A stretch of 61,373 nt of DNA, taken from the NCBI GenBank assembly GCA_045568475.1, contig JBJLAY010000040.1, positions 1-61,373 of the forward strand, in the 5' to 3' direction. Below the pieces are notes generated by a model, which searched no databases, was not told where the DNA came from, and worked only from the letters and a program-made list of their open reading frames with translations. Positions 10,025 through 61,373 of the stretch are shown here, piece after piece (the stretch's first letter is position 1; every line of letters starts with the position of its first letter). The DNA comes from Candidatus Poseidoniaceae archaeon (GTDB lineage Archaea; Thermoplasmatota; Poseidoniia; Poseidoniales; Poseidoniaceae). Both the position numbers and the translations under genes were made by a program.

Positions 10025-10034
10025 ATACAACCCC

Positions 10035-24191: not shown

Positions 24192-24195
24192 CTAA

Positions 24196-27100
24196 TCACC
24201 TCTCAAGAGTGAATCTTTGATCCTCTGCTACTTCGCCCATGGCCTTGAGGCGTAATCCCTTGAGAGAGATTACTGGGGCATCATCATCGCCGACTATTAC
24301 TACATCATGTACAGTTACTCCTGCATCTTCTGTAGCTTGTTTGATTGAACGAACACGTAATTTCTCATCTGCTTCAGGAACTCGTAGCATTGTAGACCAC
24401 TCGATTCCAATAGGTAGGCTAGAGAATCCTTCACTTTCCATTGCAGCCAGTCCGGCATTTTGGAATCCTGCCTCAATCAGCATAGGTAATGCATCAAGGA
24501 GGACTTCTTCTCCTTCTGATTCCAAAGCGAATTGGTCTGTTGCTGGTAATTGATGACGCATCAGGGCGATTCCATCTACACCATTCTCAACTCCTCGCAA
24601 TACTCCTCCATGGGATTGGAACCTAGGGCCGTGGAAGTATCTTAGATAGATGAAACTTGAATGATGCATTAATTCGCCATCTGCAGGTGTACCAATTGCT
24701 GGTAGTGCTTCGATTTCAGATTGCAAGAAAGTGCTCAAGTCATCGCTTGAGGCAACTAGTCTAACCTTTGCTTGATGATGCAATCTTGGCTCACCGAATA
24801 TTTCTCCCTTCGAGTTTACCAAATCTGAAACTAATCGGCAATTCACCCACGATAAATCTCCATTGGTCTTTTCCAAATTTGCTTCAACTCTAACCGTCAT
24901 CGCACCTTTCATTATCTTGACAGGAAGGCCGAATGAAACTTCTTCGAAACCAGCAATACAGTGTCCGGGCATCAACAGCAATGAGTTCTCAGCAAACATT
25001 TCCATAGCCATTACACCGGGATGATAAGGCACTCCATCGATTGCATGGTCAACCAAGAATGGGTGGTCTTGAACCGAAAGAGTACATTGAGAGACCAATG
25101 ATTTGCCTTCATCTAGTGATACTAACTTGTCGATTAATGGGAATCTGCGAGGATCTGCAATTGATGCTGCCATTTCTGCGGGAAGTTTTAGTGGGGCTTC
25201 TCTAAAGGAATCGTATCTATCCATCAGACCTAATGAGCCACATCCAAGAACTCTTCTTTTGCCACCAGCAAGCGCTTCTCCAACGAATATCTCAACTCCG
25301 TCTTCAACAGATAATGTTTCAATTCCAGCAGACTCGAAGACTGCTTCGATAGAACCTCTTGTAGCCATTCCAACATCTCGCCATCCTGTCCATCCAATAG
25401 CTACTGCTCTGCAATCTCCTGTTGCAGTCAGTCTGGCCATCTCTGCGTCTAGGATTGAATTGGCTGCTGCGTAATCGGTTTGACCACCGTTTCCAAATCT
25501 TCCAGCAACGCTGGTAAAGGCACAGGCGAATCTCAAAGAATCGCCTGCTACTGAATAGAGAGACTTCCAACCATCGACCTTGACTCGAACTATCAAATCG
25601 AATGTGCTCCATTCTTTGTCAGCGACTAATTTGGACTCTTCAAGTCCAGCACCATGAACGATACCAGTCACGCTTCTTCCGTTGACTGCGGCGCTAATAC
25701 TAGTTGAATCGGTTACATTTGCCGAATGATATTCTGCTTGATTACCACCGTTTTCAATCTCCTTAATTGTACGATAAATATCCATGCTGCGAGTTAGTTT
25801 AGTCCAGGCATTATTCCATTCAACCATCGTTACTTTGCCGGTCTCAGATTCTGCGATTAGGGATTCTCTAAGTTCCATCTTTCGAGTATTGAGTTGCTCA
25901 TCACTCCAATCTAACCACGATGCAGTCTCTTCAGCGAGTTTGCTTCTGCCCAGCAACAAGAATGTTGCACCTGCATCTTTGCTTGCATTTGAAACACCGA
26001 TAATGGATGCTGCAGTTACGCCTGATCCTCCACCACTTACCAACCAAATATCATCTGATTGTAGTGGTTTGATGTCATCAACTAGATCTTCTGCAAAACA
26101 GACCATTGTCCATCTTCGTCCGTCTCTGTCAATTCCAATTTCAACATCGCCACCTGAATTAAACATGTCATTATCGATAATCTCAGCTGCTGCTGCTGCA
26201 TCGATTATCAATTCAGGATGCAAATCCAAGGCTCGACATCTGAGGTTTTCACGTTCAAAACCATAGGACTTGGTTACGCCACTTGCCCCGCAGGCTAGCG
26301 CATTGAATCTGTCACCACGGTTACCATGCCTTCCGTCAATGGCTGTCACACTACCAACAATTCCTGCTGAAATAACACCTAATTGAGAATCTAATCCCTT
26401 GAGTAATCCAAACCATGATTGTGCAGCAAGTGCAACTTGGTTCGAAGGCCCTTCAGATTCCCAAGTGCTTCCAGTTAGGGACAAAGGTGCCAGGTGGATT
26501 ATTCCCCCAACTCCATCAATTCTTGAGCATACTTCTGCAATTTGTTCTTCGCTATTTGGATTTGCTCTGAAAGTATGTCCAGATAATTCCTCTTGCTCAG
26601 TGACTGACTTCGCACCGAATTCGAATCCAATTTTAGCAACTGAAAGTCCCTTTTCGGTTAGCCTGGTTGCTAGAGCATCAGCAACTCCCCAACTATCCTG
26701 TGTAATGACAATGGTTCCGCCAATTGGGAGCCCTTCTGCCACAGCAGGACAGGGTTCTACCTCAACTTGCCATCTTCTGGTGGATGTTTTTGCAGGACTT
26801 GAAGCCGGAGCGACCGGATCCGCAATAGGGGTTGCAACCGCTTGAACAGGTGCAGAAACAGGTTCTGCTGTGACGGTAGTGGATGCACTTCCACCTTTCA
26901 TTTTCTGAATGTATGCTACAAAGTGATTCAATGTTGGATGGTCGGATAGAACGAAGTCCTCATCGACAGGTAGAGAGAAGATTTCTCTAACGTCACCCAT
27001 TATTTCGGCTTGCTTTACTGTATCAATTCCAAGTTCACCTTCTAGGTCTTGATCCATTTCAATAAAGTCATCAGGATAACCTGTGTGCTTTACTACGACT

Positions 27101-30100
27101 CCAATCAATTTTGGTTGAATGTCTCCGCCATCCCCTGATTGGCTAGGTGGTGGGGCGACTGGTGCTGCCTCCACCTGAACTGGAACTGGTTCCACAGGAA
27201 TAGACTCCACTTCTACAGGAACAGATACTACGCCACCCGTCATTTTCTGAATGTATGCTACAAAGTGATTCAATGTTGGATGGTCGGATAGAACGAAGTC
27301 CTCATCGACAGGTAGAGAGAAGATTTCTCTAACGTCCCCCATTATTTCGGCTTGCTTTACGGTATCAATTCCAAGTTCGCCTTCTAGGTCTTGATCCATC
27401 TCAATGAAATCTTCAGGATAACCTGTATGTTTGACTACAACACCGATTAATTTCGGCTGTATATCGCTTACATCTGCTGAATGTGATGATGTCTGAGTCA
27501 CGACTTCAGCAGGAGGTTCTACTACGGCTTCGATTGCTGGCTGAACAGCAGGTGTTGGCGCAGGGGTTGCTGCAGGAGCGGAAACATCCCCTCCTTTCAT
27601 TTTGTGAATATATGCAATCATGTGGTTGAGTGTTGGATAATCGGACAGGATGAAGTCTTCATCGACTGGTAATTCGAACAATGTCCTGATATCAGCCATA
27701 ATCTCTGCTTGCTTGACCGTATCGATTCCCAATTCTCCTTCTAAATCTTGGTCTAATTCTACGAAGTCTGCTGGATATCCTGTGTGGTTTACTACTACTT
27801 CAATTACAGCAGGAGTAATGTCACCGACTACAGCGACTGCAGCGACTGCGGCAGGTTTCACAACTACTGGTTCTGCGACAGGTTCTGGTTCTGCAGCCGG
27901 CTTGGGCACAGTTTCTGCAACAACTGGAACTACAGGAGGTGCTGTGGCTTTGGCTACAGCGTACTCTTCTCCTTGAATACCGCCATGTAGATTGTTGTCG
28001 CCATCAACATAGGCAACTAACTTATTTTGTAGAACTCTAAGTTCGACATTTGATGTACCTGCAATAGATTGGTTCCAAGTTAGCAACTTCTGTCTATCGA
28101 TTCTGTCACCAATATAATCGTACTTTCGAACTAATGAAAGTCCGATTTGGCTACCAAATCCTGCTGCAAATCTCATTCCATATTTCAGATTGGAATAATT
28201 TCCACCTTTAGATAAAGTCAGGTTTCCAAGTTCTGGATCTACTTCCTTATGGTTTGCAATAGGAGGAATCCTTCCCGTCATTAATCCATAGAACATCGAT
28301 GCATCTTCGATTCCAACACCCATTGGATGTCCCGTGAAACCTTTGGTATTGGCAATAACAATTGAATCTGTACTTGCACCAAAGGTATCTCTCAAGGCCT
28401 TGACTTCGGCTTGGGCAGAACCGCCTCTTGCAGGAGTAAATGTTTCGTGAGAGAAGAATGCCATATCGGGAGCCATTGTATGTCGATCCAATCCCCATCT
28501 TTCTTCCATTTCTCTGATGAAGGTATCAACGGTTGAAGCAACGTGTTCAACATCTAATCTTGTTCCATGGAAAGCGGAGTTTGCAATCTTAGTTCCAAGA
28601 AGTTCAGCCATCGGTTGAACGCCTCTTTCATCAGCCTGAGATTTTCTCTCGACAACGAATGCTGCAGCTCCCATTCCCAGAATTAGTCCGTTCCTGCGAC
28701 GATCGAATGGCAGTGCTGTTTCTTCGACAACATTGCTTGTAGCTGCTGCGCCGCTTGCTGCGAAACCAGAACCAATCCATTCCCACAAATCGTCACCAGT
28801 AACATCGTCTGCAGATATAATCACCACGCGGTCACAACGGTCAGCAGCAAGCCAATCTTCAGCGACACCGAATGCTGATGTGGCTGAAGCACAAGCCAGA
28901 TTGATAGTAGTATTAGGGCCTCTGATTCCGACATGTTGTGCGAATTGTGAATGACCCATATTCAAAATCTGGAACAGATATCGACGGTCAAATCTTCCTT
29001 CCCCGTCGTCTCCGTTAACCTTAGCGTGGCGAGCAGCCATTTGATGCCCTGCGAAACATGATGCGAAAACAATACCTGTTCTATCTCTGTAAGAAGATGG
29101 CATCTGCCATGAACGAATAAGTCGTAGTCCACCTTTTCCTACCTGTTCAACAGGGCTTAGCGGAATACCTGCGTCTTTGAGAGCGATTAATCCTGCTGCA
29201 CATGCTAGTTGAGTTGCGATATCCCATGCGGCTGCGATTTTAGCATCGATTCCAAACTCTTCTGATGGATCAAATGCGGACTTAATTCCTGCTAGTTGAG
29301 GTATGTCTCCGAATTCAGTAGCAGCCTCCATCCCTACACTGCCGTCTCTTCCTTTGATTAGTCGAACTATGTTCTTGTCAAGCAATCTCTGCTTGTAGTC
29401 ATCAGTAACTTCACTGATACAGGTTTCTCCTCTGACTAACTTCTCGAAATTGCCTTCATCGAATACACGCTCGCCACCAGGCAATCCAAGAGAAATACCA
29501 GTGATTACGAATGGATCATCATCCCTATCGTCAAATTTGGTTGAACGGTTTTTACTTCCGATTGAAGGGGCTGCTGTTATCCATCTTGTGATATCAGCAG
29601 GTGTTTTTGCAACTGTAATATCCCAATCAGGGTCTGTACTGCATCTTGCATGTACGGATGAAACTACTACTTGGATTTGAGAATCATCCATACCAAGAAC
29701 AGCCCTCATGTCGACATTTCCTTGACAGAATTTAGCAGGATAACCGGATTGTACTGCGATTAATTCTCCAACTAATGCAATCTTAGCCGCATCTGGATCT
29801 ACATATTTTTGACTAGATTGAACTACAGTCTTTGTGACTGTCTCTCCTCCCTTAGATGGTAAAGGTCTACTTCTGTCTTTGAGAGGAGTTGTAGGTGCTA
29901 CTACTCCATTATCTGCTTCGATTGGGCCTGCTTTGAACGCCTCTGTAAGATGAGGACTATTACGTCCTGGCCAATCAGGAATACGACCTGCAAGGGCGAG
30001 GGTTCCAAGGGCTGAGAGGAACGTTGAGATTCCTCCGGCCTTTGGATGATTTGTCATAATCGGCAGGGCTGCCTTTCCTTCTAGGATTTGTGAGGCGAAT

Positions 30101-32847: not shown

Positions 32848-32851
32848 TTCT

Positions 32852-33646
32852 TCACTCCCCCATTATACTCGAAGGAACCATTGTAATCGAATATCCTGCA
32901 TCAACATGGATACACTGTCCTGTAACGCCTGATGAAAGTGGGCTTGCAAGCCAAGTTGTACAGCCTGCAACATCTGACTGTGTTACGTTTCTGCGAAGAG
33001 GTGAATTGTTTGCAACATGATCTAGAATATTGTCAAAGCCGGGGATGCCGCTGGCTGCAATAGTACGAATCGGTCCACTAGAAATCGCATTAACGCGGTG
33101 CCCTTCAGGCCCAAGATGGCAAGCTAATTCTCTAGTCCAGCACTCGAGTGCGGCCTTTGCCATACTCATTATTCCATAGGAAGGGACATGCCTGGTAGAT
33201 GCCGCATAAGTCAGAGTTATTGTTGAAGAGTCCGCATTGAGATATGGCAATGCATATTTCAGACAACGCTGTAATGAATTGGCAGAAATTGTGAATGCAG
33301 TATTGATACTCTCATCTTCAACGAATAAAATAGGTCTGTCGAAACACTCACGTGGGGCGAACCCGATTGCGTGAATTAGAATATCTGCTTTCAGACCAGG
33401 ATTCTCTTTACCGAATGCGTCAAAGAATTCCTTGGTATCTGCATCGGTAGCAACATCTAGCGGGTAGAATCCAGCAATGGCTGGAAGTTTATCCTTTAAT
33501 TGGAATACTCTAGACATGAATCTCTTCTGATATCCGAGGTAAAGTGTCACCCCTGCTTCAGCTAGACTCTTGCAAATCGCCCATGCGATTGAGTCTTCAC
33601 TTGCAACACCGAATACGAATGCAACTTTACCTTGTAAACCAAGCAT
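32852..33646 (-). CDS. fabI: Enoyl-[acyl-carrier-protein] reductase, FabI type (SDR)
   Basis: N-terminus MLGLQGKVAFVFGVASEDSIAWAI (FabI G-x-x-x-x-x-SIA motif) and the Tyr/Lys region YGIMSMAKAALE. The start is taken at ATG 33646; the track GTG at 33655 lies inside a hairpin. The stop lies 4 nt before the megasynthase ATG. Confidence 0.85.
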   Translation of the reverse strand: MLGLQGKVAFVFGVASEDSIAWAICKSLAEAGVTLYLGYQKRFMSRVFQLKDKLPAIAGFYPLDVATDADTKEFFDAFGKENPGLKADILIHAIGFAPRECFDRPILFVEDESINTAFTISANSLQRCLKYALPYLNADSSTITLTYAASTRHVPSYGIMSMAKAALECWTRELACHLGPEGHRVNAISSGPIRTIAASGIPGFDNILDHVANNSPLRRNVTQSDVAGCTTWLASPLSSGVTGQCIHVDAGYSITMVPSSIMGE

Positions 33647-33652
33647 GATTGG

Positions 33653-33673
33653 CACCTACCCTTAGGGTAGGTG
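33653..33673 (-). promoter_or_regulatory. Perfect 9-bp stem / 3-nt loop hairpin covering the Shine-Dalgarno-like AGGUG of fabI
   Basis: Plus strand reads cacctaccc-tta-gggtaggtg. On the mRNA it is CACCUACCC-UAA-GGGUAGGUG-CCAAUC-AUG, so the SD-like element forms the 3' arm of the stem, 6 nt from the AUG. Confidence 0.45.
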
Positions 33674-37148: not shown

Positions 37149-40100
37149 TCACTGATTTTCGTTGACCCAGTCTCGTAGTGTAGCAATATCCCACCCTTGG
37201 TCAAAGTATCCCTGGATGGTTGCTTGATCCCATTGAGGGAATTCGGCGAGAGCCGCAGCCATAGTTGGATCTACACTCGGTGCCGCAGCAGGTGGACCAG
37301 AAGTTGGAGGGCCTGCTACTGGAATCTCAGCATAGGTCTTATCTTCTTCTTCAAATTCATATTCATACTCGTAAGTTCCATCGCCAGAATCACGTTTTGC
37401 TAGTATTACTACAGCAACTAACAGAATCAGAATTAATGCACCTAGACCTACAACAATAAGCATTCCAGAACCTGACAAGAAACCTTCATCAGCAGACTGT
37501 TCTGCTACATTGAAAGACTTAGATTCTTTAGAACCGTTCCACAATATATCATTGGACTCAGCGTCTACAATCAAGAAATACATACCACTTGTTGGGCTAG
37601 CAAATATCTCGAGTTCATCAACGTCTATTTCTGACATTGTACCTTGCTCGATGTCTTCAGTTGTCCATGTATATTCTGTAGTAGGGAATCCTCCTTCTTT
37701 CACAGACTGTATCTCTAGAGTAATATTGCCATCCTTGGTACCGATGTTCTGTAACAAAATTTCCAATGAAGGAGTCTGTCCTACTTCTGGATTCTTTGGA
37801 GTCATTGCTACAGCGATTACCTCGAACTTTGCTTCCTCGTATACCAATCGGTATTGAGAATTATGAACTGGATCATCAGAATAAATTGAGCTTATTCCTC
37901 CAGCACTATTTGGGCCACCTCCATCAATTGACCAACCAGCAGAATCACGACCCTCAATCCACATTACTAGATCAATCGAATTGATTTGTGCCTGTGTTGG
38001 GTCTTGTGGGTCTGGCCACAAATCAACACAATCTGCACTGACCAAGTAATCGCCACCTTGGATCTTCAAATCCATAGGGGTAGACTGAGGCTCTGCACCG
38101 CCGAAGCGCTGACCGTAAACTGGCCATGTTAGATTTGAGTCTGCATCTGTGTAGAAAGACCACAGCAAGTTTACTTCTCCAGCAAGTAGAGCCGCATTCT
38201 CTTCTATCTTTGCTTGAACATCAACACAATGCATAGTAGATGAAGGCATGGTACTGCCTAATACATCCTGGTTTATTCCAGATTTTGCAGACCATGAATC
38301 ATCATCCATTTCTGGTTGAATACCGTCTACCTTTATCTTGAAAGTACTACAACCGAATGCATTGTTTCCATCACAAATTGAAGATGTAGTATCAGTTGCA
38401 CCATCTGGTAAGTCTACCAGGCGGAATGTGTAAGTGTACTCATTTGTAACTGGAGGGGCTGTGATGTTGATACTGAACGCTCCTCCGTCAATAGTATGCA
38501 AAGTTGGCCCATCTGTCTTGGCACCATCAGCGCCGCCTGCAGGGTATGGGAAGTATCCTTTACTTCCATCCATTGTAGCTTCAAGTCTGGTAACCTCAAG
38601 GGTAAACTCTCCTTCTGGTAACACGTAAACACCATTGTTAATTCCATCAACATAAGCGTATTTACCTTCCATTGTAATAGTATCAAGAGGGAATACGAAT
38701 GCAACTTCTACATTTTGTGAGAACGGCTCAGATACATCTGTAAATGTAGGACTGATTCCATTCCTGTAATCTAACTGGATTCCATCGCTGTAGACCCAGC
38801 GTTGCTTGTGCCTACCGCCAGATTCACTCATCAAAGATGGATCTCTATCCATATCCTTAATCCTCAACTGAGGAACATATGTGGTAGATTCAATTCCGAT
38901 AATATCCCAATTCATTCTAATTGGTAAATCCAAATAGAATTCATCTTCGAATGCATCTACTAAGCGTCCGCCATCCATTCGTAGAACTTCTGGACCTTCG
39001 CTCTCATTACTCGCTGTAACGATTTCGATATCCGTGGAGTCTGTCCAAGCAGTCTCGTTACGAGGTGAATAGTACACAACCATATCCTCAGGCCCTAGAT
39101 CGATTTCGAAGTAATTGATATCTCTCCAACCATTTTCATCGGTTGCCTCTACTATCAAGTGGTATTCATTACCAGCGTACATGGTCATATTCCATGGTCC
39201 TTGATAGAACGGAGCACCTTCGTTAGGATTGTGTAACCTTTCACCATCTGAATTTTCAATGAAGAAGTTTCTGATGTTTGGAGTCTTTGCATCCATTGAA
39301 ACATAAGTCACCAAGTCATCATTGAAACCAGGTAACCCACCTTCTATCTTGTTTCCACCAAGGTCTGCACCTTCAATGTAGATACTTACCTTACCGGGAG
39401 GGTCTTGCCCCTTATTGGCATCATCGCTAAATATTCCAGAGTAATTTGCAGTAGGTGCATTTCCATCACTTGTTAAAACTAAGGATGCATATTCATCAGG
39501 GTCTGCAATTCCGTCCATGTCAGTGTCATGGTCATACTCAACCCAGTAGAACATGTCTAAAGTGCTAGGAGGAGCAGGAATATCTTGAGCCAGAACTCTG
39601 ACCTTCTGTTGGGAATTAGGTAGAACCCAGGTGTCATCTACAAGTCCTCTCCAGTTGGACCAAATTGTAGGATCATAGTTAGAGGATTTTAGAACAGAGA
39701 TATTTACCAAACTCGGAGAGAATGTATCGATTGATAGGTTGAAAGGAATTGCACAGTCCTCATCAGATACAATAGGAGTTGGAGGGCATAGCGTATCTCC
39801 ACCCTCATATCCATCAAGCATGAATCTGTAAGTTGCCTGCCCTGCAGCAGTAAATCCAAGGTTTACTTCCCAGTTGAAGTTACCACCAATTATTCCTGTA
39901 GAATTAGAGACTTCTACCCATTCTGAAACAACAGAACCGTTGATTGATTGGACATCCCAGCGTTGTAGTGAGAGGTTGTACGAGGTTGGGTCAGGTGAAA
40001 TATCTAAACCTTCGAGACGGATAGTTCCGACCAGTTCAATATTCTGATTTGAACTTGCAGATGTTAAATTCTGCACAACTCCAGCATCATTTAGAAGTTG

Positions 40101-42968
40101 GAAAGTGGAAATCATAGCATCGTTCTCGATTGCATTTCCATTAACTGGCGCTAGCACTACAGCGCCAGGAAGGCCATTTACTCCATCAGATGCGATTAGG
40201 CTTGCATACAACCTTAACTCAGCTGTATCTTCCCATGCAGTGTTAATTCTGAATCTCCAAGTGACCTGCATCTCGTCACCCGCTTCGGTGTATGTTGAAG
40301 ATTCCATAGTCACTAAATTGTGAGGGTCGTATGCCTCTGTGAAAAGAGATAATTCTGAGAATGCTAATTCCACGACTCCACTAGATGATTCCATACGTAG
40401 TCTTGCTTCAACAAATGTAGAGCCTGTCGATTGATCAACACTGTGAGTAGAGATTGCTTCCACAATATCGCCATTAGGATACAACCCCTCCGGACTACCA
40501 GGTAGAGTTAGTGTTGAGTCATAGCCGGTTGAAGTTGTTATTGAAAGGTCTGAGAACTGCACAGCCCCTCCGCTACCAGCAGACAGTGAAAGAGGAACGT
40601 CAACATTAGCACCAGTGCCTAGAGCAATACCTTGATTCAATTCCCTGTCGAAGTTATGTGAACTAGTAAGAGAGGTTTCCCAATCGTAGAACACGTCAAG
40701 GTGACTAATTGTCACTTCAGTTCCACTGGATGCATTTATGTTAACAATCTCGAATTTGAAAGTCGCCCAATTGTTATCATATTCATCAATGTATGATGGT
40801 TGTAAAAGTGGATTAGTAAGTATAGAATTCAAAGCATCTTTCAATTGAAGCATTGGATATACGGTGTCGTAAGATATCAACGATTTGTTTTCAACTGTTC
40901 CCAAATCAAATTCCTGCCCACTACTAGATACCAATTTGATATCAAATGCACCAGCAGAATTGTTCGACATTATGACGTCGGCCAAATATACTTCAGCACC
41001 CATTGGGAGCATGAAGCTACCACCTGATGCTTCACCATAGGTGTCTAATGTGAGAGTTGCCTTGTCCATACCATGATTCATACCGTTAGCAAATCCTGCC
41101 CATAGAGTACTTTGTCTTCCAAATGAACCGAATGCTGGTTCATTCATTGCCCACTCGACATCACCATCTTCTGCGATATCTAAGCTTACTCCTTCAGCAT
41201 TATGCCCGAATTCGAGATCGAACCAGATTTCAGACATACCACAAGAGTTGTTGTAAGAAACTAGACCAGTAAATCCTAAAATTGGCACATCAGGTATCCA
41301 TTTTTGTCCAACTGTAAGATTAACAATTGAATTGTTCCGTAAGTTTAGTTCGACTGCTGGTTCTTCTAAACAATCATCTACAACAACTGGGGTGACGCCA
41401 ACTATTGGTTGAGAGAATCTCGTACTGTACAGTGGAGGGTCGAATGAATTGTCCACTATTGTAGGCGTGTAAAACAAAAGGTTGCCCTCTCCCGGAGTTT
41501 GCCAAACCCCGTCAATAACCATTGGATCTAATACGACATTTGTGTCATTTAATCCAGTTCCAACTCTAGTGCCAATGTTCAGACCGTGTAGAACGGATGT
41601 TGACAACTTGTATTGGCCTGTATCGAAATCAAACCTCAAATCGATCACAGGGTATTCTGATGAATCGATACCCCAAAGTTCGATGATTGGCCCTTCTAAA
41701 CCGGTCATCTGATTACCATCAACATCTACCACAACCTCTGTTGTGCTACCTCGTAATATTGTTACTGTTAGTGAGTTAGTAGGAGTGGTTTCATGTTCGA
41801 GATTTAGGATTCCGTATCCATCAGGGAAACCTGGGTTAGGACTTTGTTTTGGAGTGAAGCCTTTGACTGTCATTGAGCCTGATTGAGGGAGAGGATCTCC
41901 CATGCGGAAGTCGTCAATGAACCAACCAGGCATGGTTGTGTTTTCAGGAGCACCGCTACCTGAATTGTGAGTTAGAACAAACTTCAGTTGGACATATTTC
42001 TGCACGTGCTCATTGAGATTGAGAGCTAGTGTTGCCCAACCACCTGGGTTTTGTGTAGGATGAGTTGATTCTCCGCCTAATGCGTAATCAGTACCAGTCA
42101 GACTGTCACAACTCTGTATTCTTCCATTTCCAATTCCGATTGGATAAAGACCGTTAGCATAACTAATTCCGGTAGAGTTAGTAGCATCGAATTCGATGTG
42201 GCTCCAACCTGTTTCTGGTGGAGGGAAATTCGGTGATGATGAATTTCTAACCATCACATAGCCACAGTCGTAGTATGTGTTTGTTGGATTAGTACCCGGA
42301 TTTGTTTGAGTCCAATGAAGTCCATGCCAACTTGAGAATTTAGCAATTGGAGAGTTTGGATCAACTTCCATAGATGGAGTTATCATGCTGTAAGAAAATG
42401 TACCACCCTCGTCATCAGTGGTGTAATCATTATCGAAATCATAGATGTTTGTACCCCAGCATTCATTACCAGTGTTACACTTTTCATTTAGAACCATGTT
42501 GTCTGTTAGTTGACCATGCTCCCATCCAGTCGCTTCGAAAACTGGCGGTTGAGTGAAATCAACAAACGAGCCATCTGTGCGTTCGAAGTCAGTAGAAAGG
42601 CCTCCGCTGACTAATTGTACCGTGTCTTCATTGTATGTAAAATCGGATAATGTTGAATATTCAGTCTGTTGATTATTGTATGTAGGGTCCCATACATATT
42701 GAGCGGTTTCAGAATTGATTGATGAATAGGTTTCATGAGTAGCCATATCTGTTGAAATCATCATTGAAGCCCCTGTAACCGTATCGCCGGATGGAAGAGT
42801 TATGGTTCCGTCCACACTATTTGTGTAATCAGGGCCATCTCTAACTTCAACAGTAACTTCACTTCCATTACTGCCGAATGTGGTGATGTTTGCGGCTCCT
42901 GCTAATGGGCAAATAAGCATCAAACATGTGAATACCAAAGCGGTTATTGCATTCTTATTATCATTCAT
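37149..42968 (-). CDS. Giant (~1940 aa) secreted surface protein with a C-terminal TM anchor; no recognisable domains
   Basis: The start is taken at MNDNKNAITALVFTCLMLICPLAGAANI (ATG 42968). It is Thr/Ser/Asn/Asp-rich with beta-rich-looking composition. C-terminal helix MLIVVGLGALILILLVAVVILA and an acidic/Pro-rich tail. Confidence 0.7.
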   Translation of the reverse strand: MNDNKNAITALVFTCLMLICPLAGAANITTFGSNGSEVTVEVRDGPDYTNSVDGTITLPSGDTVTGASMMISTDMATHETYSSINSETAQYVWDPTYNNQQTEYSTLSDFTYNEDTVQLVSGGLSTDFERTDGSFVDFTQPPVFEATGWEHGQLTDNMVLNEKCNTGNECWGTNIYDFDNDYTTDDEGGTFSYSMITPSMEVDPNSPIAKFSSWHGLHWTQTNPGTNPTNTYYDCGYVMVRNSSSPNFPPPETGWSHIEFDATNSTGISYANGLYPIGIGNGRIQSCDSLTGTDYALGGESTHPTQNPGGWATLALNLNEHVQKYVQLKFVLTHNSGSGAPENTTMPGWFIDDFRMGDPLPQSGSMTVKGFTPKQSPNPGFPDGYGILNLEHETTPTNSLTVTILRGSTTEVVVDVDGNQMTGLEGPIIELWGIDSSEYPVIDLRFDFDTGQYKLSTSVLHGLNIGTRVGTGLNDTNVVLDPMVIDGVWQTPGEGNLLFYTPTIVDNSFDPPLYSTRFSQPIVGVTPVVVDDCLEEPAVELNLRNNSIVNLTVGQKWIPDVPILGFTGLVSYNNSCGMSEIWFDLEFGHNAEGVSLDIAEDGDVEWAMNEPAFGSFGRQSTLWAGFANGMNHGMDKATLTLDTYGEASGGSFMLPMGAEVYLADVIMSNNSAGAFDIKLVSSSGQEFDLGTVENKSLISYDTVYPMLQLKDALNSILTNPLLQPSYIDEYDNNWATFKFEIVNINASSGTEVTISHLDVFYDWETSLTSSHNFDRELNQGIALGTGANVDVPLSLSAGSGGAVQFSDLSITTSTGYDSTLTLPGSPEGLYPNGDIVEAISTHSVDQSTGSTFVEARLRMESSSGVVELAFSELSLFTEAYDPHNLVTMESSTYTEAGDEMQVTWRFRINTAWEDTAELRLYASLIASDGVNGLPGAVVLAPVNGNAIENDAMISTFQLLNDAGVVQNLTSASSNQNIELVGTIRLEGLDISPDPTSYNLSLQRWDVQSINGSVVSEWVEVSNSTGIIGGNFNWEVNLGFTAAGQATYRFMLDGYEGGDTLCPPTPIVSDEDCAIPFNLSIDTFSPSLVNISVLKSSNYDPTIWSNWRGLVDDTWVLPNSQQKVRVLAQDIPAPPSTLDMFYWVEYDHDTDMDGIADPDEYASLVLTSDGNAPTANYSGIFSDDANKGQDPPGKVSIYIEGADLGGNKIEGGLPGFNDDLVTYVSMDAKTPNIRNFFIENSDGERLHNPNEGAPFYQGPWNMTMYAGNEYHLIVEATDENGWRDINYFEIDLGPEDMVVYYSPRNETAWTDSTDIEIVTASNESEGPEVLRMDGGRLVDAFEDEFYLDLPIRMNWDIIGIESTTYVPQLRIKDMDRDPSLMSESGGRHKQRWVYSDGIQLDYRNGISPTFTDVSEPFSQNVEVAFVFPLDTITMEGKYAYVDGINNGVYVLPEGEFTLEVTRLEATMDGSKGYFPYPAGGADGAKTDGPTLHTIDGGAFSINITAPPVTNEYTYTFRLVDLPDGATDTTSSICDGNNAFGCSTFKIKVDGIQPEMDDDSWSAKSGINQDVLGSTMPSSTMHCVDVQAKIEENAALLAGEVNLLWSFYTDADSNLTWPVYGQRFGGAEPQSTPMDLKIQGGDYLVSADCVDLWPDPQDPTQAQINSIDLVMWIEGRDSAGWSIDGGGPNSAGGISSIYSDDPVHNSQYRLVYEEAKFEVIAVAMTPKNPEVGQTPSLEILLQNIGTKDGNITLEIQSVKEGGFPTTEYTWTTEDIEQGTMSEIDVDELEIFASPTSGMYFLIVDAESNDILWNGSKESKSFNVAEQSADEGFLSGSGMLIVVGLGALILILLVAVVILAKRDSGDGTYEYEYEFEEEDKTYAEIPVAGPPTSGPPAAAPSVDPTMAAALAEFPQWDQATIQGYFDQGWDIATLRDWVNENQ

Positions 42969-43032
42969 GGGGCTACCCTCTCTCCTCTTCCAGTCCAGTC
43001 TGACATAAAAGACCGACGGGGAAGTGTCTGAG

Positions 43033-43060
43033 CGGGTTCCCCCCTTTAGGGGGGTACCCG
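43033..43060 (-). terminator. GC-clamp hairpin (C6-loop-G6 core) just downstream of the ThiI-like gene
   Basis: Reads cgggttcccccc-ttta-ggggggtacccg: 11 bp with one T-T mismatch. It lies 7 nt past the stop at 43067. No oligo-T follows, so terminator function is only a guess. Confidence 0.3.
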
Positions 43061-43066
43061 GTAATC

Positions 43067-43732
43067 TCAAAGAGACACTAATTTAGATTGCGAAAAACTT
43101 GTGAAAGCGAGGTGCTGCAAGCCACCGGCTCTCTCTTCGGATTGCTCTAACCATTCCTTATTAGCCACTGTTGTAGGCTTCTTAGGCCCTAAAGCGTCAC
43201 ATACTTCTGGTCCTTCACTGATAGAAAGTGTGCCGATTTTCCTAGCCATTGTCATAATAGTAACTTTATCGAAGGCCAATAATGGCCTAAGGGGGTGTAA
43301 ATCAGTGGCGATCTCAACACCTCCTAAGTTCCCGAGTGTTTGGCTAGAAACTTGGCCTAGATTTTCACCAGTAAGTACATGCGTTGCACCCACTTCATTA
43401 CCTCGGAGTGTTGCAATAGAATTGAATAACCGTTTCATATGGATGAAGTATTCTGTGTGATTCCATTTTTCGGTGAAAAGTGCTAATTGTTCAGCGACTG
43501 GAACTACTATTAAATCCCTGGATAGATTTTCTCTGGCTGCATCACCAAGGGGGCCTTCCAATTCTAATAAATGTCTGAGTAATGCGATTGTCTTCTGCTC
43601 AGCAGCAGGACCGGTCACCTGCTCTTGAGATGCATGTAAAGGATAGACTTTCCAGCCTTTCATCAACATTCTAGCAACTGCTACTGGGGAATCAATCCCT
43701 CCACTAACGAGTGCTATGCAAATACCCGCCAT
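43067..43732 (-). CDS. PP-loop ATPase, ThiI-like tRNA sulfurtransferase catalytic domain only (no THUMP domain)
   Basis: MAGICIALVSGGIDSPVA (SGGxDS PP-loop), with the ThiI-like remainder (..VLTGENLGQVSSQTL..). About 220 aa. Confidence 0.65.
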   Translation of the reverse strand: MAGICIALVSGGIDSPVAVARMLMKGWKVYPLHASQEQVTGPAAEQKTIALLRHLLELEGPLGDAARENLSRDLIVVPVAEQLALFTEKWNHTEYFIHMKRLFNSIATLRGNEVGATHVLTGENLGQVSSQTLGNLGGVEIATDLHPLRPLLAFDKVTIMTMARKIGTLSISEGPEVCDALGPKKPTTVANKEWLEQSEERAGGLQHLAFTSFSQSKLVSL

Positions 43733-56562: not shown

Positions 56563-58848
56563 TCATTGTTGAAACCGTCGGTGTAGAGCAAGATGGATTT
56601 CTTGGTTGAAGTCAGTAGTCAGTGGCGGCTCAGGCATCTGCTTTTGGAATAGCCAACCTGCTAATGGGTGGCTTTTTCCTGAAACGGGAGGTCTTCCTTC
56701 TTCTGCAGCCTTTAGAGCCTCTGCAACATCCTCTAACGAATCTGTCCCAATGCCTTCAGGCATGTGATGAACCAGGACCAAATCTTCTGCTTTCAAATCT
56801 TGCTCAAACAATATAGCGGCCCAAGGTAAGTCTAGTAGAGAAAGTGCTGAACGACCTAGGGTTGATGACATACACATCAATAACCAAGAGGTTGATTGAT
56901 TTTTCCATAATGAAAAGTGGACATCTTCCATTATTCCTAACGCATCTTCGCGCTCAAAGTTATCTTGATTCAATAACTTACTATGATGAGGGCATGCAAC
57001 TACTAAACGTTCGATTCCAGGTTTGTTCCAATTCTTACGTAGTACTTCCGAAACTTCTAATGGATTTGATAACCATGTATCGGTCACATCCAATTCTTCC
57101 TCGAACCATTCTGAACTGAGTAGTATTACAGTTGCTATGGCGGGATGGTGTGTATCAAGTGAAATTATACTGAGGGGATTGTTCCTTATTCTCTCCATTA
57201 GAATGACTAGTGCATCACTGTCCACTAATGCGAGATCTGCAAGAGTGGAAGTGTCAAAGTCATCCAAAGTCGCTAAGGTTGCCCATACTGGATTCAGGTA
57301 TTCTCCAATCCTCCTCCATCTAGCAGATTGGCCCGCCCTTGGTGTCGCAATCCATGCTGCAAGTGGGAAACTTTTCTCGTGGCGGTCAGCCCATTCTTCA
57401 TCCCCGTTTGCCAATTTACATGCCTGCCACATTGCTTCGATTTGATTATCTGAATTTTTGGCAGAAGATGAATTGCCCCTTCTCAATTCTCTAGGATTCG
57501 AAGGAGGGATCCAATCGTTTGGTACAGAAATTTCTGAATCAATACTAATTGGCAGATGAAGACGGCCAGGCATTTCCAAATCGAATTTACCTTGGCCCTC
57601 TTGTGAGGTAAGAACAAAAGGTAAGCCGATATCAGGTATTTCGCAAATTACCATTCTACATTTGCCATCACTGGCAAACCTAGTTAACAAATTATGATTA
57701 GCAGGCCAACGCCAATCCAAAACAATAGGAAGATTAGAAGCTTCTAATGAAAAATTGACAATAGATTCTGCAGCACGTTGCGAAATAGATCTAGTATCGA
57801 TTATATTGTCAAAACTATCTGTCCAAACTCTTCCGGGAAAATCATTCAACACTTTTCTTGTTAATGCATTAGATGATGAGTTTTCAAGATCCTCTAGAAG
57901 GCGATTGTATTTTTCATCAATCGATTTTTGACCAAGCCTAGGGTGAATTAATTTCAACCAATTTCTAAGTATACCCCTCGGCAAAGGGTTTGCAGGAATA
58001 GATAGAAGATCGCCATCAACTATTTTCAAGGATTTCGAAGGAGCATTTCTAACAATCAAAGATCTTTCACTTCGGCGACCTAATCTGGCATGGACTCCAC
58101 CTCTAGGCCTTACTTGTGGACCCGAATTACCCGCTCTTCCAATAGCTGCATCACCATCACGTAACACATCAGGTAGTTCGGGCCAGTGCCCAGATGGTAA
58201 AGATGTGAACCAACTTCCCACTCCTAATGGCCATGGCTTGGAATCCTGTAGAAGTTTAGCTCGGACAACTCCCATCACTTTCGGTCGTTCCATCCAAGCG
58301 GTAAGTGTCATTGGACTAGCATCTGTAGGAGCCACGGCTCGACGCATAGATTCCAAATCCCACCACACTGGATCTTCTCCTCTTTGTACAGCCCACTGCC
58401 ATGATATTGACGCCCCCTCATTTCCACTGGAGTTTTCTAATACTCCACTTTCATCATTCATAGGTCTATCAGGCAGGCCAAGAAGAGGTCCTGCTGGCAT
58501 AGATGCGTAACCAAGTAGTAACATTGAGCCTTCTCGTGCTAGCACAATTCCAGCCGCACCAGGAGGTGGAGGCCATCTTACTAGTTCGTCCAAACGAGCT
58601 AAACCATCTCCTTCTAGACGACTCAATCCCTGAGATGAAAGTCGATACCTAGAACCGCGTAAATTGTGATCATCTCGGGCTACGTCCCCCGATTCACGCA
58701 ATTTCTTCAATGCTGCAGATGCGTGTGGAACTCTAAGTCCCAATGCATTGGAAACCTCAGTTACGGTCCCTCCGCCATCTGCCAACCAATCTAGGATTCT
58801 TCGTTGGTAAGTGGAACGAATACGGTTACTTCGCACCATTGTCACCAA
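56563..58848 (-). CDS. Large hypothetical protein with an N-terminal winged-helix DNA-binding domain
   Basis: 761 aa. N-terminus RRILDWLADGGGTVTEVSNALGLRVPHASAALKKLRESGDVARD (ArsR/MarR/TrmB-like wHTH). The remaining ~680 aa have no recognisable motif. Start is TTG 58848 or ATG 58839. Confidence 0.6.
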   Translation of the reverse strand: MVTMVRSNRIRSTYQRRILDWLADGGGTVTEVSNALGLRVPHASAALKKLRESGDVARDDHNLRGSRYRLSSQGLSRLEGDGLARLDELVRWPPPPGAAGIVLAREGSMLLLGYASMPAGPLLGLPDRPMNDESGVLENSSGNEGASISWQWAVQRGEDPVWWDLESMRRAVAPTDASPMTLTAWMERPKVMGVVRAKLLQDSKPWPLGVGSWFTSLPSGHWPELPDVLRDGDAAIGRAGNSGPQVRPRGGVHARLGRRSERSLIVRNAPSKSLKIVDGDLLSIPANPLPRGILRNWLKLIHPRLGQKSIDEKYNRLLEDLENSSSNALTRKVLNDFPGRVWTDSFDNIIDTRSISQRAAESIVNFSLEASNLPIVLDWRWPANHNLLTRFASDGKCRMVICEIPDIGLPFVLTSQEGQGKFDLEMPGRLHLPISIDSEISVPNDWIPPSNPRELRRGNSSSAKNSDNQIEAMWQACKLANGDEEWADRHEKSFPLAAWIATPRAGQSARWRRIGEYLNPVWATLATLDDFDTSTLADLALVDSDALVILMERIRNNPLSIISLDTHHPAIATVILLSSEWFEEELDVTDTWLSNPLEVSEVLRKNWNKPGIERLVVACPHHSKLLNQDNFEREDALGIMEDVHFSLWKNQSTSWLLMCMSSTLGRSALSLLDLPWAAILFEQDLKAEDLVLVHHMPEGIGTDSLEDVAEALKAAEEGRPPVSGKSHPLAGWLFQKQMPEPPLTTDFNQEIHLALHRRFQQ

Positions 58849-59110: not shown

Positions 59111-59437
59111 ATGAAGACAGTAAGAATACGTGAGAAAATCAAGAAGTTCCTAGGTGACCGCCCTCGCAACACGGCAGAGATCTTGGAACACATTAACAGT
59201 ACTATGCGCCATGGCACCACTAGTCAGCAATTAGGAAATGTACTCTCCAAGGACAAAGACATCGTCAAAGTAGGATACATCAAGAGGTCCGGCATTCTTT
59301 CTGGCGGATACGACATCTGCGAATGGGCTACTCGAACATGGGTAGCTGATAACTGCCCAGGATGGGAAGAAGGTCAACCACTAATCATCGACTCTGAAGG
59401 AAACGTTCAGACAAACGATTTGATTAGGCGCAACTGA
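59111..59437 (+). CDS. Small hypothetical protein, probable winged-helix
   Basis: 108 aa. Strong SD (AAGGAGGAG) 7 nt before the ATG. KIKKFLGDRPRNTAEILEHINSTMRHGTTSQQLGNVLSKDKDIVKVG looks like an HTH plus wing. Confidence 0.55.
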   Translation: MKTVRIREKIKKFLGDRPRNTAEILEHINSTMRHGTTSQQLGNVLSKDKDIVKVGYIKRSGILSGGYDICEWATRTWVADNCPGWEEGQPLIIDSEGNVQTNDLIRRN

Positions 59438-59446
59438 TTGATTCAG

Positions 59447-59548
59447 ATGACAATAAGACTACCTGCTACAAGCGGGATGTGTATTTTTTGCGGTGGCCTA
59501 GTCGTAGGATCAGTCTGTACATCTTGCGGAATGGTTCAAAATTACTGA
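59447..59548 (+). CDS. Possible 33-aa mini zinc-ribbon peptide
   Basis: My own translation gives MTIRLPATSGMCIFCGGLVVGSVCTSCGMVQNY (CxxC-x8-CxxC). It starts 10 nt after the preceding stop, and its last 7 nt overlap the convergent aldolase gene end. It is below the ORF-track size cut-off. Confidence 0.25.
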   Translation: MTIRLPATSGMCIFCGGLVVGSVCTSCGMVQNY

Positions 59549-60492
59549 CCACTGTAAATTGCAAGGGCTTCTTCAAGACCAGCTCCATCACAAATAACCG
59601 CTTTACATGCAGCAGTCATTCTAACCGCATCTTCTGTGCCTTTTTGGTGAATATTCCTCCCAGTAGCCGCTCCTCTACAACCAGAAACTTGCATCTGTTG
59701 AACTAATCGCTCTAAGAATTCCTCAGGCGGAAGAGATCCTCCTCCTGAACATATGATACCACAGCGACCTGCAGCCTCTGCGGCTATGCCTAAACTTTCA
59801 GGTTGCGTCATTCCTTCGAAAGCACGTGGGTAGTTCACTTTAGCAAAATCTGCACCTAAACAGCCAGCAACACCTGCGGCCCCAGATATTAACTGGGGAT
59901 CTTTCTCGTCAGTTACTGCTTTTCCACGAGGGTACATCCAAACAACTGAAATCATTCCCATTTCATGTGCTTGGCGGATGAAAGTTGCCGCTTCTGTTAG
60001 CATTTCGTGCTCATATTCTGAGCCAATGTAGACTGTATAGCCGATTCCAACAACATTAATTCCATTGTGAAGTAATGATGCTACATCATCTAAATCCCAA
60101 AGAGCCTGTGATACGGGATCTCTTTGACTGGTTCCAACCATATGAGATTTTGAGTTGAGTTTTACCAAGTAAGGGAGTTGGGGATAATCTCTCGCATACT
60201 GAGATATCAATCCTAATTGTCCAGCGAATACACCGATTGTACCTTGAGCATGAGCCTTAGCACCTATCTCGAAAAGGTGCTTAGGGTCATTAGATGACAA
60301 TGGTATATTTTTACCACCATCGTAGAAGTCGTCATTGAGGTGCTCAATCTTCTGGTCACAAGCAAAAAGATTCATTTTGCCTGTACCACAAGTCGCTGCA
60401 TCCATGTTATCGATAAATGTCTCGATAAGTTCGTCAGGAACATCTGCTGGAACATGGTACTTGGTCGCCATCAAACCGCCGACTTTACTCAA
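59542..60492 (-). CDS. Class I fructose-bisphosphate aldolase family (FbaB/DhnA-type; could instead be the related ADH synthase)
   Basis: ...GTGKMNLFACDQKIEH... aligns with the FbaB LSILPVDQGVEH region. The Schiff-base Lys context is GADFAKVNYP. TIM-barrel length (~310 aa). Confidence 0.75.
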   Translation of the reverse strand: MSKVGGLMATKYHVPADVPDELIETFIDNMDAATCGTGKMNLFACDQKIEHLNDDFYDGGKNIPLSSNDPKHLFEIGAKAHAQGTIGVFAGQLGLISQYARDYPQLPYLVKLNSKSHMVGTSQRDPVSQALWDLDDVASLLHNGINVVGIGYTVYIGSEYEHEMLTEAATFIRQAHEMGMISVVWMYPRGKAVTDEKDPQLISGAAGVAGCLGADFAKVNYPRAFEGMTQPESLGIAAEAAGRCGIICSGGGSLPPEEFLERLVQQMQVSGCRGAATGRNIHQKGTEDAVRMTAACKAVICDGAGLEEALAIYSGQ

Positions 60493-60587
60493 GGACTTGA
60501 AAACATCGTTTCCAAAATAGGCAAGTTCGAAAAATATATTGTAATAATAATGAAAGAAATATATGCTACTTTTTGAATCTTATAGCC

Positions 60588-61244
60588 ATGCAGAGTACGT
60601 GTGGCCGGTGTGGGAAAACCGGGCATACAAGCAAACAATGTTACTACAATAACAGAGCTCGGCAAAAGAAGAAGGAATTTCGAGTCTGTTCCTTATGCAA
60701 AGAAGGAGGGCACAACTCTAGGACCTGTAGGCTAACCAACCCTGCTAAAGCCACGACCAGAGAGGAGAGACTCTCTGCAAGGAGATGTTCATACTGTGGA
60801 GTAAAAGGCCACAATGCCAGAACATGTCCAGTCAAAAACCCGGGAAATCAAAAAATTTCTGCAAGAGATAACAGACGTAGATGCTCACATTGTAGTAAGC
60901 CGGGCCACAATTCGAGAACTTGTCCTATACTGAATCCAGGAAAGGCCCTCAAAATTAGCAAAAAAGGTTGGCGGCATTGCACTAATTGCGGCAAGGTTGG
61001 CCATAACTCCCGTACATGTCCTGACCTGTACCCTGAAAAGAATAGGATTTCTAACTTGAGATCTAAAGGGAACAGATTGTGTACGCACTGCTACAATCCA
61101 GGCCATAACCGTAGAACATGTCCTGAAGTAAATCCATCCGCAGCTAAATTACGGCTACAAAGAAAATCTAGCAATAAGGCACTACGTAGGTGTAGCATTT
61201 GCAATAGCATGGAGCATAATGCTCGCACTTGTAATCAAAGATGA
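60588..61244 (+). CDS. Basic protein with seven CCHC (CX2CX4HX4C) zinc knuckles
   Basis: CGRCGKTGHTSKQC, CSLCKEGGHNSRTC, CSYCGVKGHNARTC, CSHCSKPGHNSRTC, CTNCGKVGHNSRTC, CTHCYNPGHNRRTC, CSICNSMEHNARTC. Most are followed by P-x-x-NP. The start is taken at ATG 60588 (track TTG 60573). Confidence 0.7.
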   Translation: MQSTCGRCGKTGHTSKQCYYNNRARQKKKEFRVCSLCKEGGHNSRTCRLTNPAKATTREERLSARRCSYCGVKGHNARTCPVKNPGNQKISARDNRRRCSHCSKPGHNSRTCPILNPGKALKISKKGWRHCTNCGKVGHNSRTCPDLYPEKNRISNLRSKGNRLCTHCYNPGHNRRTCPEVNPSAAKLRLQRKSSNKALRRCSICNSMEHNARTCNQR

Positions 61245-61373
61245 TTACTGGCCTTCGAAACTAGGAACTCTTCGCTCGACATATGCAGCGATTCCTTCCT
61301 TAGCGTCACTACTACCGAATAGAGCAGCCTGTAGTTCACGCTCAAGTGCCAAGTGGTACTCGAATGGAATCTC
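61245..61373 (-). CDS. Enoyl-CoA hydratase/isomerase (crotonase) family protein, C-terminal fragment (N-terminus outside the window)
   Basis: My own translation of the minus strand gives ...EIPFEYHLALERELQAALFGSSDAKEGIAAYVERRVPSFEGQ*. The EGIxAFxEKRxPxF ending is typical of crotonases. Confidence 0.6.
   Translation of the reverse strand, partial: EIPFEYHLALERELQAALFGSSDAKEGIAAYVERRVPSFEGQ

Follow-up and report, generated by a model that had tools for sequence, protein, structure and literature searches.

Close to the 3′ end of the window, by which we mean the whole 61,373-base stretch of contig JBJLAY010000040.1 (Candidatus Poseidoniaceae archaeon) analysed here, lies an open reading frame (ORF) for a protein made up of seven CCHC zinc knuckles and the linkers that join them. 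The coding sequence (60588..61244, + strand) runs from an ATG start to a TGA stop and specifies 218 residues. Six-frame translation of the window gave exactly seven matches to the pattern C-X2-C-X4-H-X4-C, all inside this ORF. When the protein's own residues were shuffled 100,000 times, 99.2% of the shuffles contained no match and 0.75% contained one, while three shuffles contained two and none contained more; seven knuckles in one such protein are far beyond chance. The protein scored above the Pfam cut-offs for zf-CCHC_2 (PF13696, 38.1 bits against 27) and zf-CCHC (PF00098, 33.3 bits against 20.8), with PF14392 at 27.6 bits against a threshold of 27. It represents a previously undescribed archaeal family that is present across the sampled lineages of Poseidoniales (Marine Group II).

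The seven knuckles, all on the + strand, are spaced 29-37 residues apart. Knuckle 1 (CGRCGKTGHTSKQC, 60600..60641) is a divergent unit, in which H-T replaces H-N and the RTCP element is missing. Knuckles 2 (CSLCKEGGHNSRTC, 60687..60728), 3 (CSYCGVKGHNARTC, 60786..60827) and 4 (CSHCSKPGHNSRTC, 60882..60923) match the pattern exactly and are followed by R-L-T-N-P, PVKNP and PILNP, respectively. Knuckle 5 (CTNCGKVGHNSRTC, 60978..61019) is followed by PDLYPEK and knuckle 6 (CTHCYNPGHNRRTC, 61080..61121) by PEVNPSAAKLR, with a predicted helix after each. In the C-terminal knuckle 7 (CSICNSMEHNARTC, 61191..61232), E-H replaces G-H. From unit 1 to unit 7, the amino acid that follows the first cysteine (Cys1+1) is G, S, S, S, T, T and S, and the one following the histidine (His+1) is T, N, N, N, N, N and N. 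No RGG occurs in the protein sequence. Likewise, Tandem Repeats Finder detected no DNA-level tandem repeat in the gene, which argues against a recent duplication at the DNA level.

An earlier, sequence-only reading of the window had described seven exact CX2CX4HX4C units in a protein of ~218 residues, joined by Lys/Arg-rich linkers, and had advised a search with the zf-CCHC profile. The unit count was borne out by the six-frame scan and the shuffles, the linkers by a lysine plus arginine content (K+R) of 23% and a pI of 10.4, and both zf-CCHC_2 and zf-CCHC exceeded their Pfam thresholds. Three finer points needed a small correction. The G-H-N/T element, described as invariant, has G-H in six of the seven units (unit 7 being E-H), followed by Asn in six units and by Thr in unit 1. 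The P-x-x-NP element said to follow most units is found after units 3, 4 and 6, with R-L-T-N-P after unit 2, P-D-L-Y-P after unit 5 and neither form after units 1 and 7.

Upstream, on the opposite strand, lies a gene for a DeoC/DhnA-type class I fructose-bisphosphate aldolase (59542..60471, - strand; 309 residues from the ATG used in public gene calls), which matches Pfam DeoC at 2.1e-39 and NCBIfam PRK06852 at 419 bits, just under the curated cut-off of 420. The aldolase and knuckle genes are divergent, with a common intergenic region of 116 bp in the window. Downstream, the stop codon of a convergent enoyl-CoA hydratase (ECH) gene abuts the TGA of the knuckle gene; the window end cuts this gene so that only its 3′ end, the last 129 bases of the window, is included (61245..61373, - strand). 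The same junction with a complete ECH gene of 287 residues is present at L005, L007, L013, L016 and other loci.

Gene calls on 13 independent metagenome contigs of marine origin, Tara Oceans samples included, contain the identical 218-residue protein, with the gene order unchanged: a large helix-turn-helix (HTH) protein, a DUF3860 protein, the opposite-strand aldolase, the knuckle gene, the convergent enoyl-CoA hydratase, an NAD-binding protein, MoaE and MoaC. A metagenome scan added about 60 more marine loci, whose knuckle proteins are full-length relatives at 38-91% identity, or 40-91% for the syntenic orthologues; all of these loci that have flanking DNA show the same neighbourhood. A divergent aldolase gene stands upstream of the knuckle gene in every locus having upstream sequence, across a gap of about 60-310 bp, and the upstream and downstream junctions of the knuckle gene both recur in more than 50 independent contigs. 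GC content is flat along the window (0.42-0.47). Moreover, over 42 loci ranging from 0.42 to 0.64, the GC content of the knuckle gene tracks that of its flanks (r = 0.93), as does its GC at third codon positions (GC3; r = 0.94). The ratio of non-synonymous to synonymous divergence (dN/dS) against the closest orthologues is 0.06-0.09. The knuckle gene is real, protein-coding, native and old. An assembly mis-join at the 3′ end of the contig, whose integrity the sequence-only reading had wanted checked, is excluded by the recurrent junctions, the native GC, the synteny and the purifying selection.

Nop56/58, fibrillarin, PCNA, Cdc6/Orc1 and a TBP-like protein are likewise encoded in the window and mark it as archaeal. 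Among species-representative genomes, the best locus (L013) comes from a metagenome-assembled genome (MAG) titled 'Candidatus Poseidoniales archaeon' and carries an orthologue with 64% identity over its full length, with synteny kept; its aldolase is 93% and its DUF3860 protein 100% identical to those of the window. Together, the informational genes and this syntenic orthologue uphold the earlier claim of a genuine seven-fold zf-CCHC protein in a prokaryotic, here archaeal, genome. A second locus from the species-representative genomes is titled 'uncultured euryarchaeote'. That scan, which used narrow peptide patterns and returned three loci, one of them spurious (L015, no ORF), is no measure of prevalence per genome. 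The GC content of the knuckle loci (0.40-0.65) is close to the range of 34.5-62.7% reported for Poseidoniales MAGs (PMC6461757).

Several features of the neighbouring genes were also recorded. The paired aldolase is of the DeoC/DhnA type (PF01791) in loci with a GC content of 0.40-0.48 and of the class I 'Glycolytic' type (PF00274; for example L001, 4583-5593) in loci with a GC content of 0.48-0.65. Since position and orientation are the same for both types, this looks like an in-place non-orthologous replacement. The DUF3860 protein (108 residues, 59111-59437, + strand) matches PDB entry 2OD5 ('hypothetical protein') with an E-value of 5.6e-59. It is 79-100% identical to the window copy in most loci (lowest, 56-64%, at L061 and L058), compared with 26-99% for its neighbours, and its gene is usually the most conserved of the block. 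The large HTH protein (761 residues, 56563-58848, - strand) has a weak N-terminal ArsR/MarR-like HTH as its sole recognisable feature; it is syntenic across loci, with 26-31% identity between most loci of the two classes (45-48% for L058 and L060).

Family statistics were compiled from 51 distinct complete orthologues extracted from the loci, with 332 units that were located by the C-X2-C-X4-H-X4-C pattern itself. Seven knuckles were counted in 32 orthologues, six in 13 and five in three, and there was one orthologue each with four, three (probably truncated) and eight. Seven-knuckle proteins are found in both deep synteny classes. Seven is the number at 20 of the 22 loci whose aldolase is DeoC-type; at the two exceptions, knuckle 1 is either degenerate, with His replaced by Gln (L018), or lies upstream of the only available start codon (L027, 3297-3887). 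Loci with a class I aldolase comprise ten with seven knuckles, ten with six and six others. At L026 (4142-4873), which forms one clade with L027, knuckle 1 is upstream of any ATG, GTG or TTG start, and knuckle 1 is the unit most often lost among the orthologues. Units at the same position in different orthologues (similarity 0.49-0.60 for units 2-7) are slightly more alike than units at different positions (about 0.45-0.50). This, together with the lack of a tandem repeat in the DNA, argues that the array is ancient and has since undergone losses and one gain.

The module that repeats along these proteins has the consensus R-x-C-[S/G/T]-x-C-G-x-x-G-H-N-x-R-T-C-P-x-[L/V/I]-[N/H]-P-E-x-A-x-x-R, and knuckles start every 29-40 residues across the orthologues. 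Over the 332 units, Arg is found at position -2 in 93%, Gly before the His in 91%, Asn at His+1 in 96%, Arg at His+3 in 91% and Thr at His+4 in 94%; beyond the last Cys, Pro is found at position +14 in 72% and at position +18 in 76%. The Cys1+1 position holds Ser (51%), Gly (17%), Thr (11%) or Ala (5%), which together account for 84% of the units. All orthologues have a pI of 10.1-11.6 and a K+R content of 20-30%, with 9-10% Cys and 0-5% aromatic residues, and 50 columns are invariant among the 32 seven-knuckle proteins.

Public gene calls do not always capture the full array. Call P0001 (6001-6441) starts at an internal ATG and has 146 residues with four knuckles, whereas the matching high-GC orthologue at L001 (5740-6441), read from the upstream ATG, has 233 residues and seven knuckles. 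Judging by this one high-GC case, protein databases may under-represent and truncate the family.

A conserved promoter-like element, AATAATAATGAAAGAAATATATGC (60543..60566, + strand), lies inside the 116-bp region common to the knuckle and aldolase genes and is unique in the window. It comprises a purine-rich stretch resembling a B recognition element (BRE) and a TATA-like sequence, AAATATAT (60557-60564, + strand), about 27 nt upstream of the ATG, which is the usual distance between TATA box and start in archaea. A 21-nt core of the element is exactly kept in 12 loci, ending 22 nt before the ATG in each, and these include loci at which the protein is 60-65% identical and synonymous sites are saturated. 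Its position and composition suggest that AATAATAATGAAAGAAATATATGC is a BRE/TATA promoter and that the mRNA is probably leaderless or near-leaderless, beginning at about 60588. A TTG at 60573 would lengthen the knuckle ORF by five codons, but is an unlikely start, given the end of the promoter-like element 22 nt before the ATG and the use of the equivalent ATG by the orthologues. Scans for sigma-70 promoters and intrinsic terminators, by models that are not applicable to archaea, returned nothing, and the sole Rfam match over the window was a tRNA-Gly.

The structure of the protein was predicted with AlphaFold2. The whole-protein model, for which the input was a three-sequence alignment, had a mean pLDDT of 69 and a pTM of 0.29, with pLDDT values of 70-88 for the knuckles and helices in four linkers, each of them beginning with the N-P of the cap that follows the knuckle or immediately behind it. 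This model is consistent with independent modules arranged as beads on a string. For a single module (knuckle 6), modelled on an alignment of the window protein's own seven modules, the pLDDT was about 90 over the knuckle, with a helix after it at residues 22-34. A Foldseek search of the PDB with the single module gave only seven matches, all CCHC knuckles, with an rmsd of 0.8-1.7 Å over 17-24 residues; they belong to Xrn2 of C. thermophilum, RNase D of T. brucei with U12 RNA, MoMLV NCp10, dArc1 and HIV-1 NCp7. The domain is so small that the E-values are not significant. The predicted module thus appears to adopt the knuckle fold, in which two short strands or turns surround the metal. Whole-protein Foldseek matches to arrays of C2H2 fingers (for example CTCF, TM about 0.13) were rejected as an artefact of comparing strings of small domains, and in that search only the local matches to the T. 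brucei RNase D knuckle (7c4c, 7c45; probability 0.96-0.99) were meaningful.

The general plan of the protein, with seven tandem CX2CX4HX4C knuckles and little else in about 180-220 residues, Gly after the second Cys and before the His, and presumed multivalent binding of nucleic acid, recalls that of CNBP/ZNF9/Gis2. A BLASTP alignment of the window protein with human CNBP showed 25% identity and 28% gaps, with matches confined to the zinc ligands and glycines. Several registers scored alike, indicating that only the knuckles align. CNBP has an RGG box between knuckles 1 and 2, a repeat period of about 20-25 residues and an aromatic residue after Cys1 in every knuckle. The Poseidoniales family, in contrast, lacks the RGG box, has a repeat period of 29-37 residues, carries Ser/Gly/Thr after Cys1 and Asn after the His, adds the P-x-L-N-P-E-x-A cap and helical basic linkers, and varies from three to eight knuckles among orthologues. 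Orthology with CNBP was ruled out by the ligand-limited similarity, the multiple registers, the missing RGG and the longer linkers.

The best PDB sequence matches were to retroviral nucleocapsids (NC) of RSV and MPMV, with E-values of about 5e-4 to 6e-3, and the predicted module superimposes on MoMLV NCp10 and HIV-1 NCp7 at 0.8-1.2 Å. Retroviral NC has one or two knuckles within the Gag polyprotein, whereas the window gene is a stand-alone cellular ORF, and no capsid, protease, reverse transcriptase (RT) or integrase gene was found near the knuckle gene in any of more than 50 loci. A retroelement Gag nucleocapsid was ruled out for a stand-alone ORF of 218 residues between genes for an aldolase and an enoyl-CoA hydratase. 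Moreover, the hydrophobic plateau of NC is missing from the Poseidoniales knuckles. In nucleic-acid-binding knuckles the residues after Cys1 and after the His are aromatic or hydrophobic and sandwich a base, and knuckles without an aromatic residue after Cys1 are predicted to be unlikely to bind RNA or DNA canonically (PMC9369019). Neither the window protein nor the family has the canonical base-sandwich residues of NC, CNBP and Lin28. The family shares the zinc-knuckle fold, is neither a CNBP orthologue nor a nucleocapsid, and fails the feature that marks the canonical binding mode. The label of CNBP or nucleocapsid type given in the sequence-only reading consequently applies to the 14-residue knuckle and its fold, and not to family membership or, probably, to the binding mode. 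The module also shows local structural likeness to the knuckle of T. brucei RNase D (1.1 Å over 24 residues), and Air1/Air2 of the TRAMP complex are multi-knuckle RNA-handling proteins; in both, the knuckles are accessory to enzymes or complexes that were not seen at the Poseidoniales locus.

No NCBIfam or PHROGs model matches the window protein. In a collection of 5.8 billion proteins the named matches were plant or fungal ('DNA-binding protein HEXBP', 'zinc knuckle family protein', 'CCHC-type domain-containing protein'), the metagenomic matches were called 'hypothetical protein' and once 'Zinc knuckle', and no named archaeal or bacterial protein was among them. The only orthologues in that collection were the truncated gene calls P0001 and P0044, and exact-sequence cluster look-ups showed the window protein and three orthologues to be missing from it. 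A HMMER search with the window protein against 1.84 billion cluster representatives gave 629 matches at E <= 1e-3, 43 at <= 1e-10 and 4 at <= 1e-30, in a library that carries no taxonomy and says little on distribution. We found no literature linking Poseidoniales or Marine Group II with a zinc knuckle or CCHC, nor, more broadly, any description of an archaeal CCHC-knuckle family. In the available part of the supplements to PMC9258230, which list Poseidoniales-specific families, the terms CCHC, PF13696 and DUF3860 do not occur. The family is common within Poseidoniales yet not annotated as a family; an archaeal family both common and already annotated, which would have counted against the earlier reading, did not turn up in these searches.

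The GHNxRTCP knuckle subtype has a wider spread. The best named database matches, at E-values of 2e-14 and weaker, are knuckle proteins of plants and green algae (HEXBP-like, 'zinc knuckle family protein'), which share C-x2-C-G-x-x-G-H-N-x-R-T-C(-P) in 4-6 copies, with four to nine over the plant and algal proteins as a group; these have extra N-terminal regions and other linkers, and lack both the L-N-P-E-x-A cap and the synteny. On marine phage-like contigs (L008, L010, L011 and L089-L100), two to four GHNxRTCP knuckles are joined to other domains, as in P0006, P0016, P0023, P0025, P0014 and P0072. P0023 adjoins terminase and portal genes, P0006 belongs to a run of small ORFs that includes a sigma factor, P0016 is near genes for DNA polymerase III alpha, dUTPase and a chaperonin, and P0072 has three knuckles fused to a SprT-like domain. 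A recurrent marine family starts with MSYNGTVRCSYCY-x-x-GHN-x-RTCP, and five IMG/VR contigs match weakly. The context of the contigs of P0069 and P0046 was uninformative, tblastn of the window protein and the phage-like P0014 against 50,697 GenBank phage records gave no match, and the phage-like knuckle proteins received no PHROG annotation. These relatives share the marine habitat and the knuckle subtype with the Poseidoniales proteins, but lack the L-N-P-E-x-A cap and are not syntenic. The GHNxRTCP knuckle circulates among prokaryotic viruses, and the subtype is common to marine viruses, green-lineage eukaryotes and Poseidoniales. If it was acquired, the knuckle gene entered before the sampled Poseidoniales lineages split. 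Poseidoniales are not close relatives of eukaryotes, and so a vertical archaeal-eukaryotic link is unlikely.

As to function, we lean, with modest conviction, towards a lineage-specific, multivalent chaperone or coating protein that would bind nucleic acid without sequence specificity. On this reading a native gene, passed on vertically across the sampled Poseidoniales lineages, encodes a strongly basic protein. Each knuckle would fold around one Zn2+, and the repeating module would consist of the CCHC knuckle, the conserved P-x-L-N/H-P-E-x-A cap and an Arg/Lys-rich, partly helical linker. Seven such modules with their cationic linkers may engage nucleic acid, be it single-stranded RNA, structured RNA or DNA, at many points at once. 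Contact would be mainly electrostatic, with polar contributions from four nearly invariant residues, Arg(-2), Asn(His+1), Arg(His+3) and Thr(His+4), and the aromatic base-stacking pocket of retroviral NC, CNBP and Lin28 would not be used. Its role could then be that of a general nucleic-acid chaperone, or of a factor that coats RNA or possibly the chromosome. The pI of 10.1-11.6 and the high K+R content point to a polyanion-binding chemistry in all orthologues, and zf-CCHC is known as a nucleic-acid-binding module, which lends general support (PMC9369019).

Several observations weigh against this proposal. Over the 332 units the base-sandwich positions are neither aromatic nor hydrophobic, several orthologues are essentially without Phe, Trp and Tyr (L001 has none), and such knuckles are considered unlikely to bind RNA or DNA canonically (PMC9369019). 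The neighbouring genes (aldolase, enoyl-CoA hydratase, molybdopterin synthesis) have no link to nucleic-acid metabolism, and the AlphaFold2 models were built on very shallow alignments. The single-stranded RNA/DNA (ssRNA/ssDNA) chaperone suggested by the sequence-only reading is accordingly weakened: with Ser/Gly/Thr and Asn at the positions that would stack on a base, it is plausible but not established.

The missing aromatic residues for stacking on single-stranded nucleic acid would favour binding to the backbone or to duplexes, and the protein could be an architectural component of the chromatin or nucleoid, the major DNA coat of Poseidoniales in place of basic histones. We regard this as unlikely, although the extreme charge (pI 10.1-11.6), the multivalent design and the presence of the gene across the sampled Poseidoniales lineages all suit it. 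Most Thermoplasmatota are without histones, and the sole histone-fold gene of Poseidoniales encodes an acidic 'quadruplet' with a median pI of 5.2 that 'might not bind DNA' (PMC13260811), which leaves room for a basic DNA-coating protein. On the other hand, Alba, an HU/HTa-like protein or the very conserved, winged-helix-like DUF3860 neighbour could fill the nucleoid role, and zinc knuckles are classically single-strand binders. The full form of the idea, in which the protein is the principal chromosome coat and the knuckle-plus-helix module binds duplex or backbone by a mode undescribed for CCHC knuckles, is rather doubtful.

A basic composition with predicted zinc sites and strong purifying selection would also fit a ribosome- or rRNA-associated factor, a lineage-specific protein acting on structured RNA in the manner of basic Zn-containing ribosomal proteins or assembly factors. 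In keeping with such a role, translation and RNA surveillance involve eukaryotic multi-knuckle proteins such as CNBP/Gis2 and Air1/2. In Cryptococcus, the CNBP homologues Gis2 and Znf9 are reported to change the association with polysomes (PMC6083090). This role is nevertheless improbable, for no ribosomal or RNA-processing genes lie near the locus, and a unit number that varies from three to eight would be unusual in a structural component of the ribosome.

The divergent pairing with an aldolase gene in every locus with upstream sequence, which persists although one set of loci has a DeoC-type aldolase and the other a classical class I enzyme (PF00274), raises the question of whether the protein regulates the adjacent gene or central carbon metabolism, either at the divergent promoter or on the mRNA. 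The conserved motif in the common intergenic region would be in line with this, but in position and composition it fits the knuckle gene's own BRE/TATA. The whole block (HTH, DUF3860, aldolase, knuckle gene, Moa genes) is syntenic, and the pairing may reflect a general conservation of gene order. Seven near-identical basic modules without a sensor domain are, moreover, atypical of a specific regulator, and we give the idea little credence.

Seven predicted zinc sites in 218 residues, a Cys content of 9-10% and the prediction that non-aromatic knuckles may not bind RNA or DNA (PMC9369019) might instead point to a zinc buffer or storage protein, or to a protein-protein adaptor without nucleic-acid binding; either is very improbable. 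The near-invariant Arg, Asn, Arg, Thr and Pro on the surface and the polycationic linkers would be needless for metal storage. Structural CCHC sites bind zinc too tightly for easy release. Furthermore, zinc is scarce in surface seawater, which makes it unlikely that a storage protein would be conserved without another function.

Finally, we assign a negligible probability to misassembly and to a recent insertion of eukaryotic or viral DNA: the gene does lie within the last 800 bases of the window, with its nearest named relatives in plants and its nearest unnamed ones on phage-like contigs, but both junctions recur in more than 50 independent assemblies, window GC is uniform, the GC and GC3 of the gene keep step with the host locus between 0.42 and 0.64, and the orthologues have diverged to 40-91% identity under strong purifying selection.

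Elsewhere in the window, other genes on the - strand were noted. A multidomain KS-AT-ACP-KR-DH protein of 2883 residues (23502-33655) resembles a type I polyketide synthase (PKS) or polyunsaturated fatty acid (PUFA) synthase; its gene is flanked by those for a 4'-phosphopantetheinyl transferase and an enoyl-ACP reductase, and together they amount to lipid or polyketide machinery of bacterial type within the genome of an archaeon. An ORF of 1973 residues (37149-43070) has no Pfam match. An ORF of 1111 residues (524-3859) combines a B12-binding domain, a MeaB GTPase and a methylmalonyl-CoA mutase domain, as in IcmF-like fused mutases. Two adjacent SCO1/SenC-family paralogues of 204 and 203 residues (8848-10060) overlap by 14 bases.

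Poseidoniales rank with the most abundant planktonic archaea and are uncultured, so that insight into their cell biology comes mainly from conserved lineage-specific genes. A protein made entirely of CCHC knuckles, conserved and under strong selection, is unexpected in an archaeon, since the domain is regarded as eukaryotic or retroviral. With the metal site kept, the base-stacking residues replaced and a cap and basic helices added, the family offers a natural test of what a knuckle does without its aromatic pocket. The occurrence of the subtype in marine phage-like contigs and green-lineage eukaryotes makes the origin of the knuckle, and its spread between viruses, archaea and eukaryotes, testable. 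The protein may also be the basic component, nucleic-acid-binding or chromatin, that is missing in an order whose histone homologue is acidic; should it prove to coat the chromosome, an archaeal order of global abundance would have a chromatin system based on zinc knuckles.

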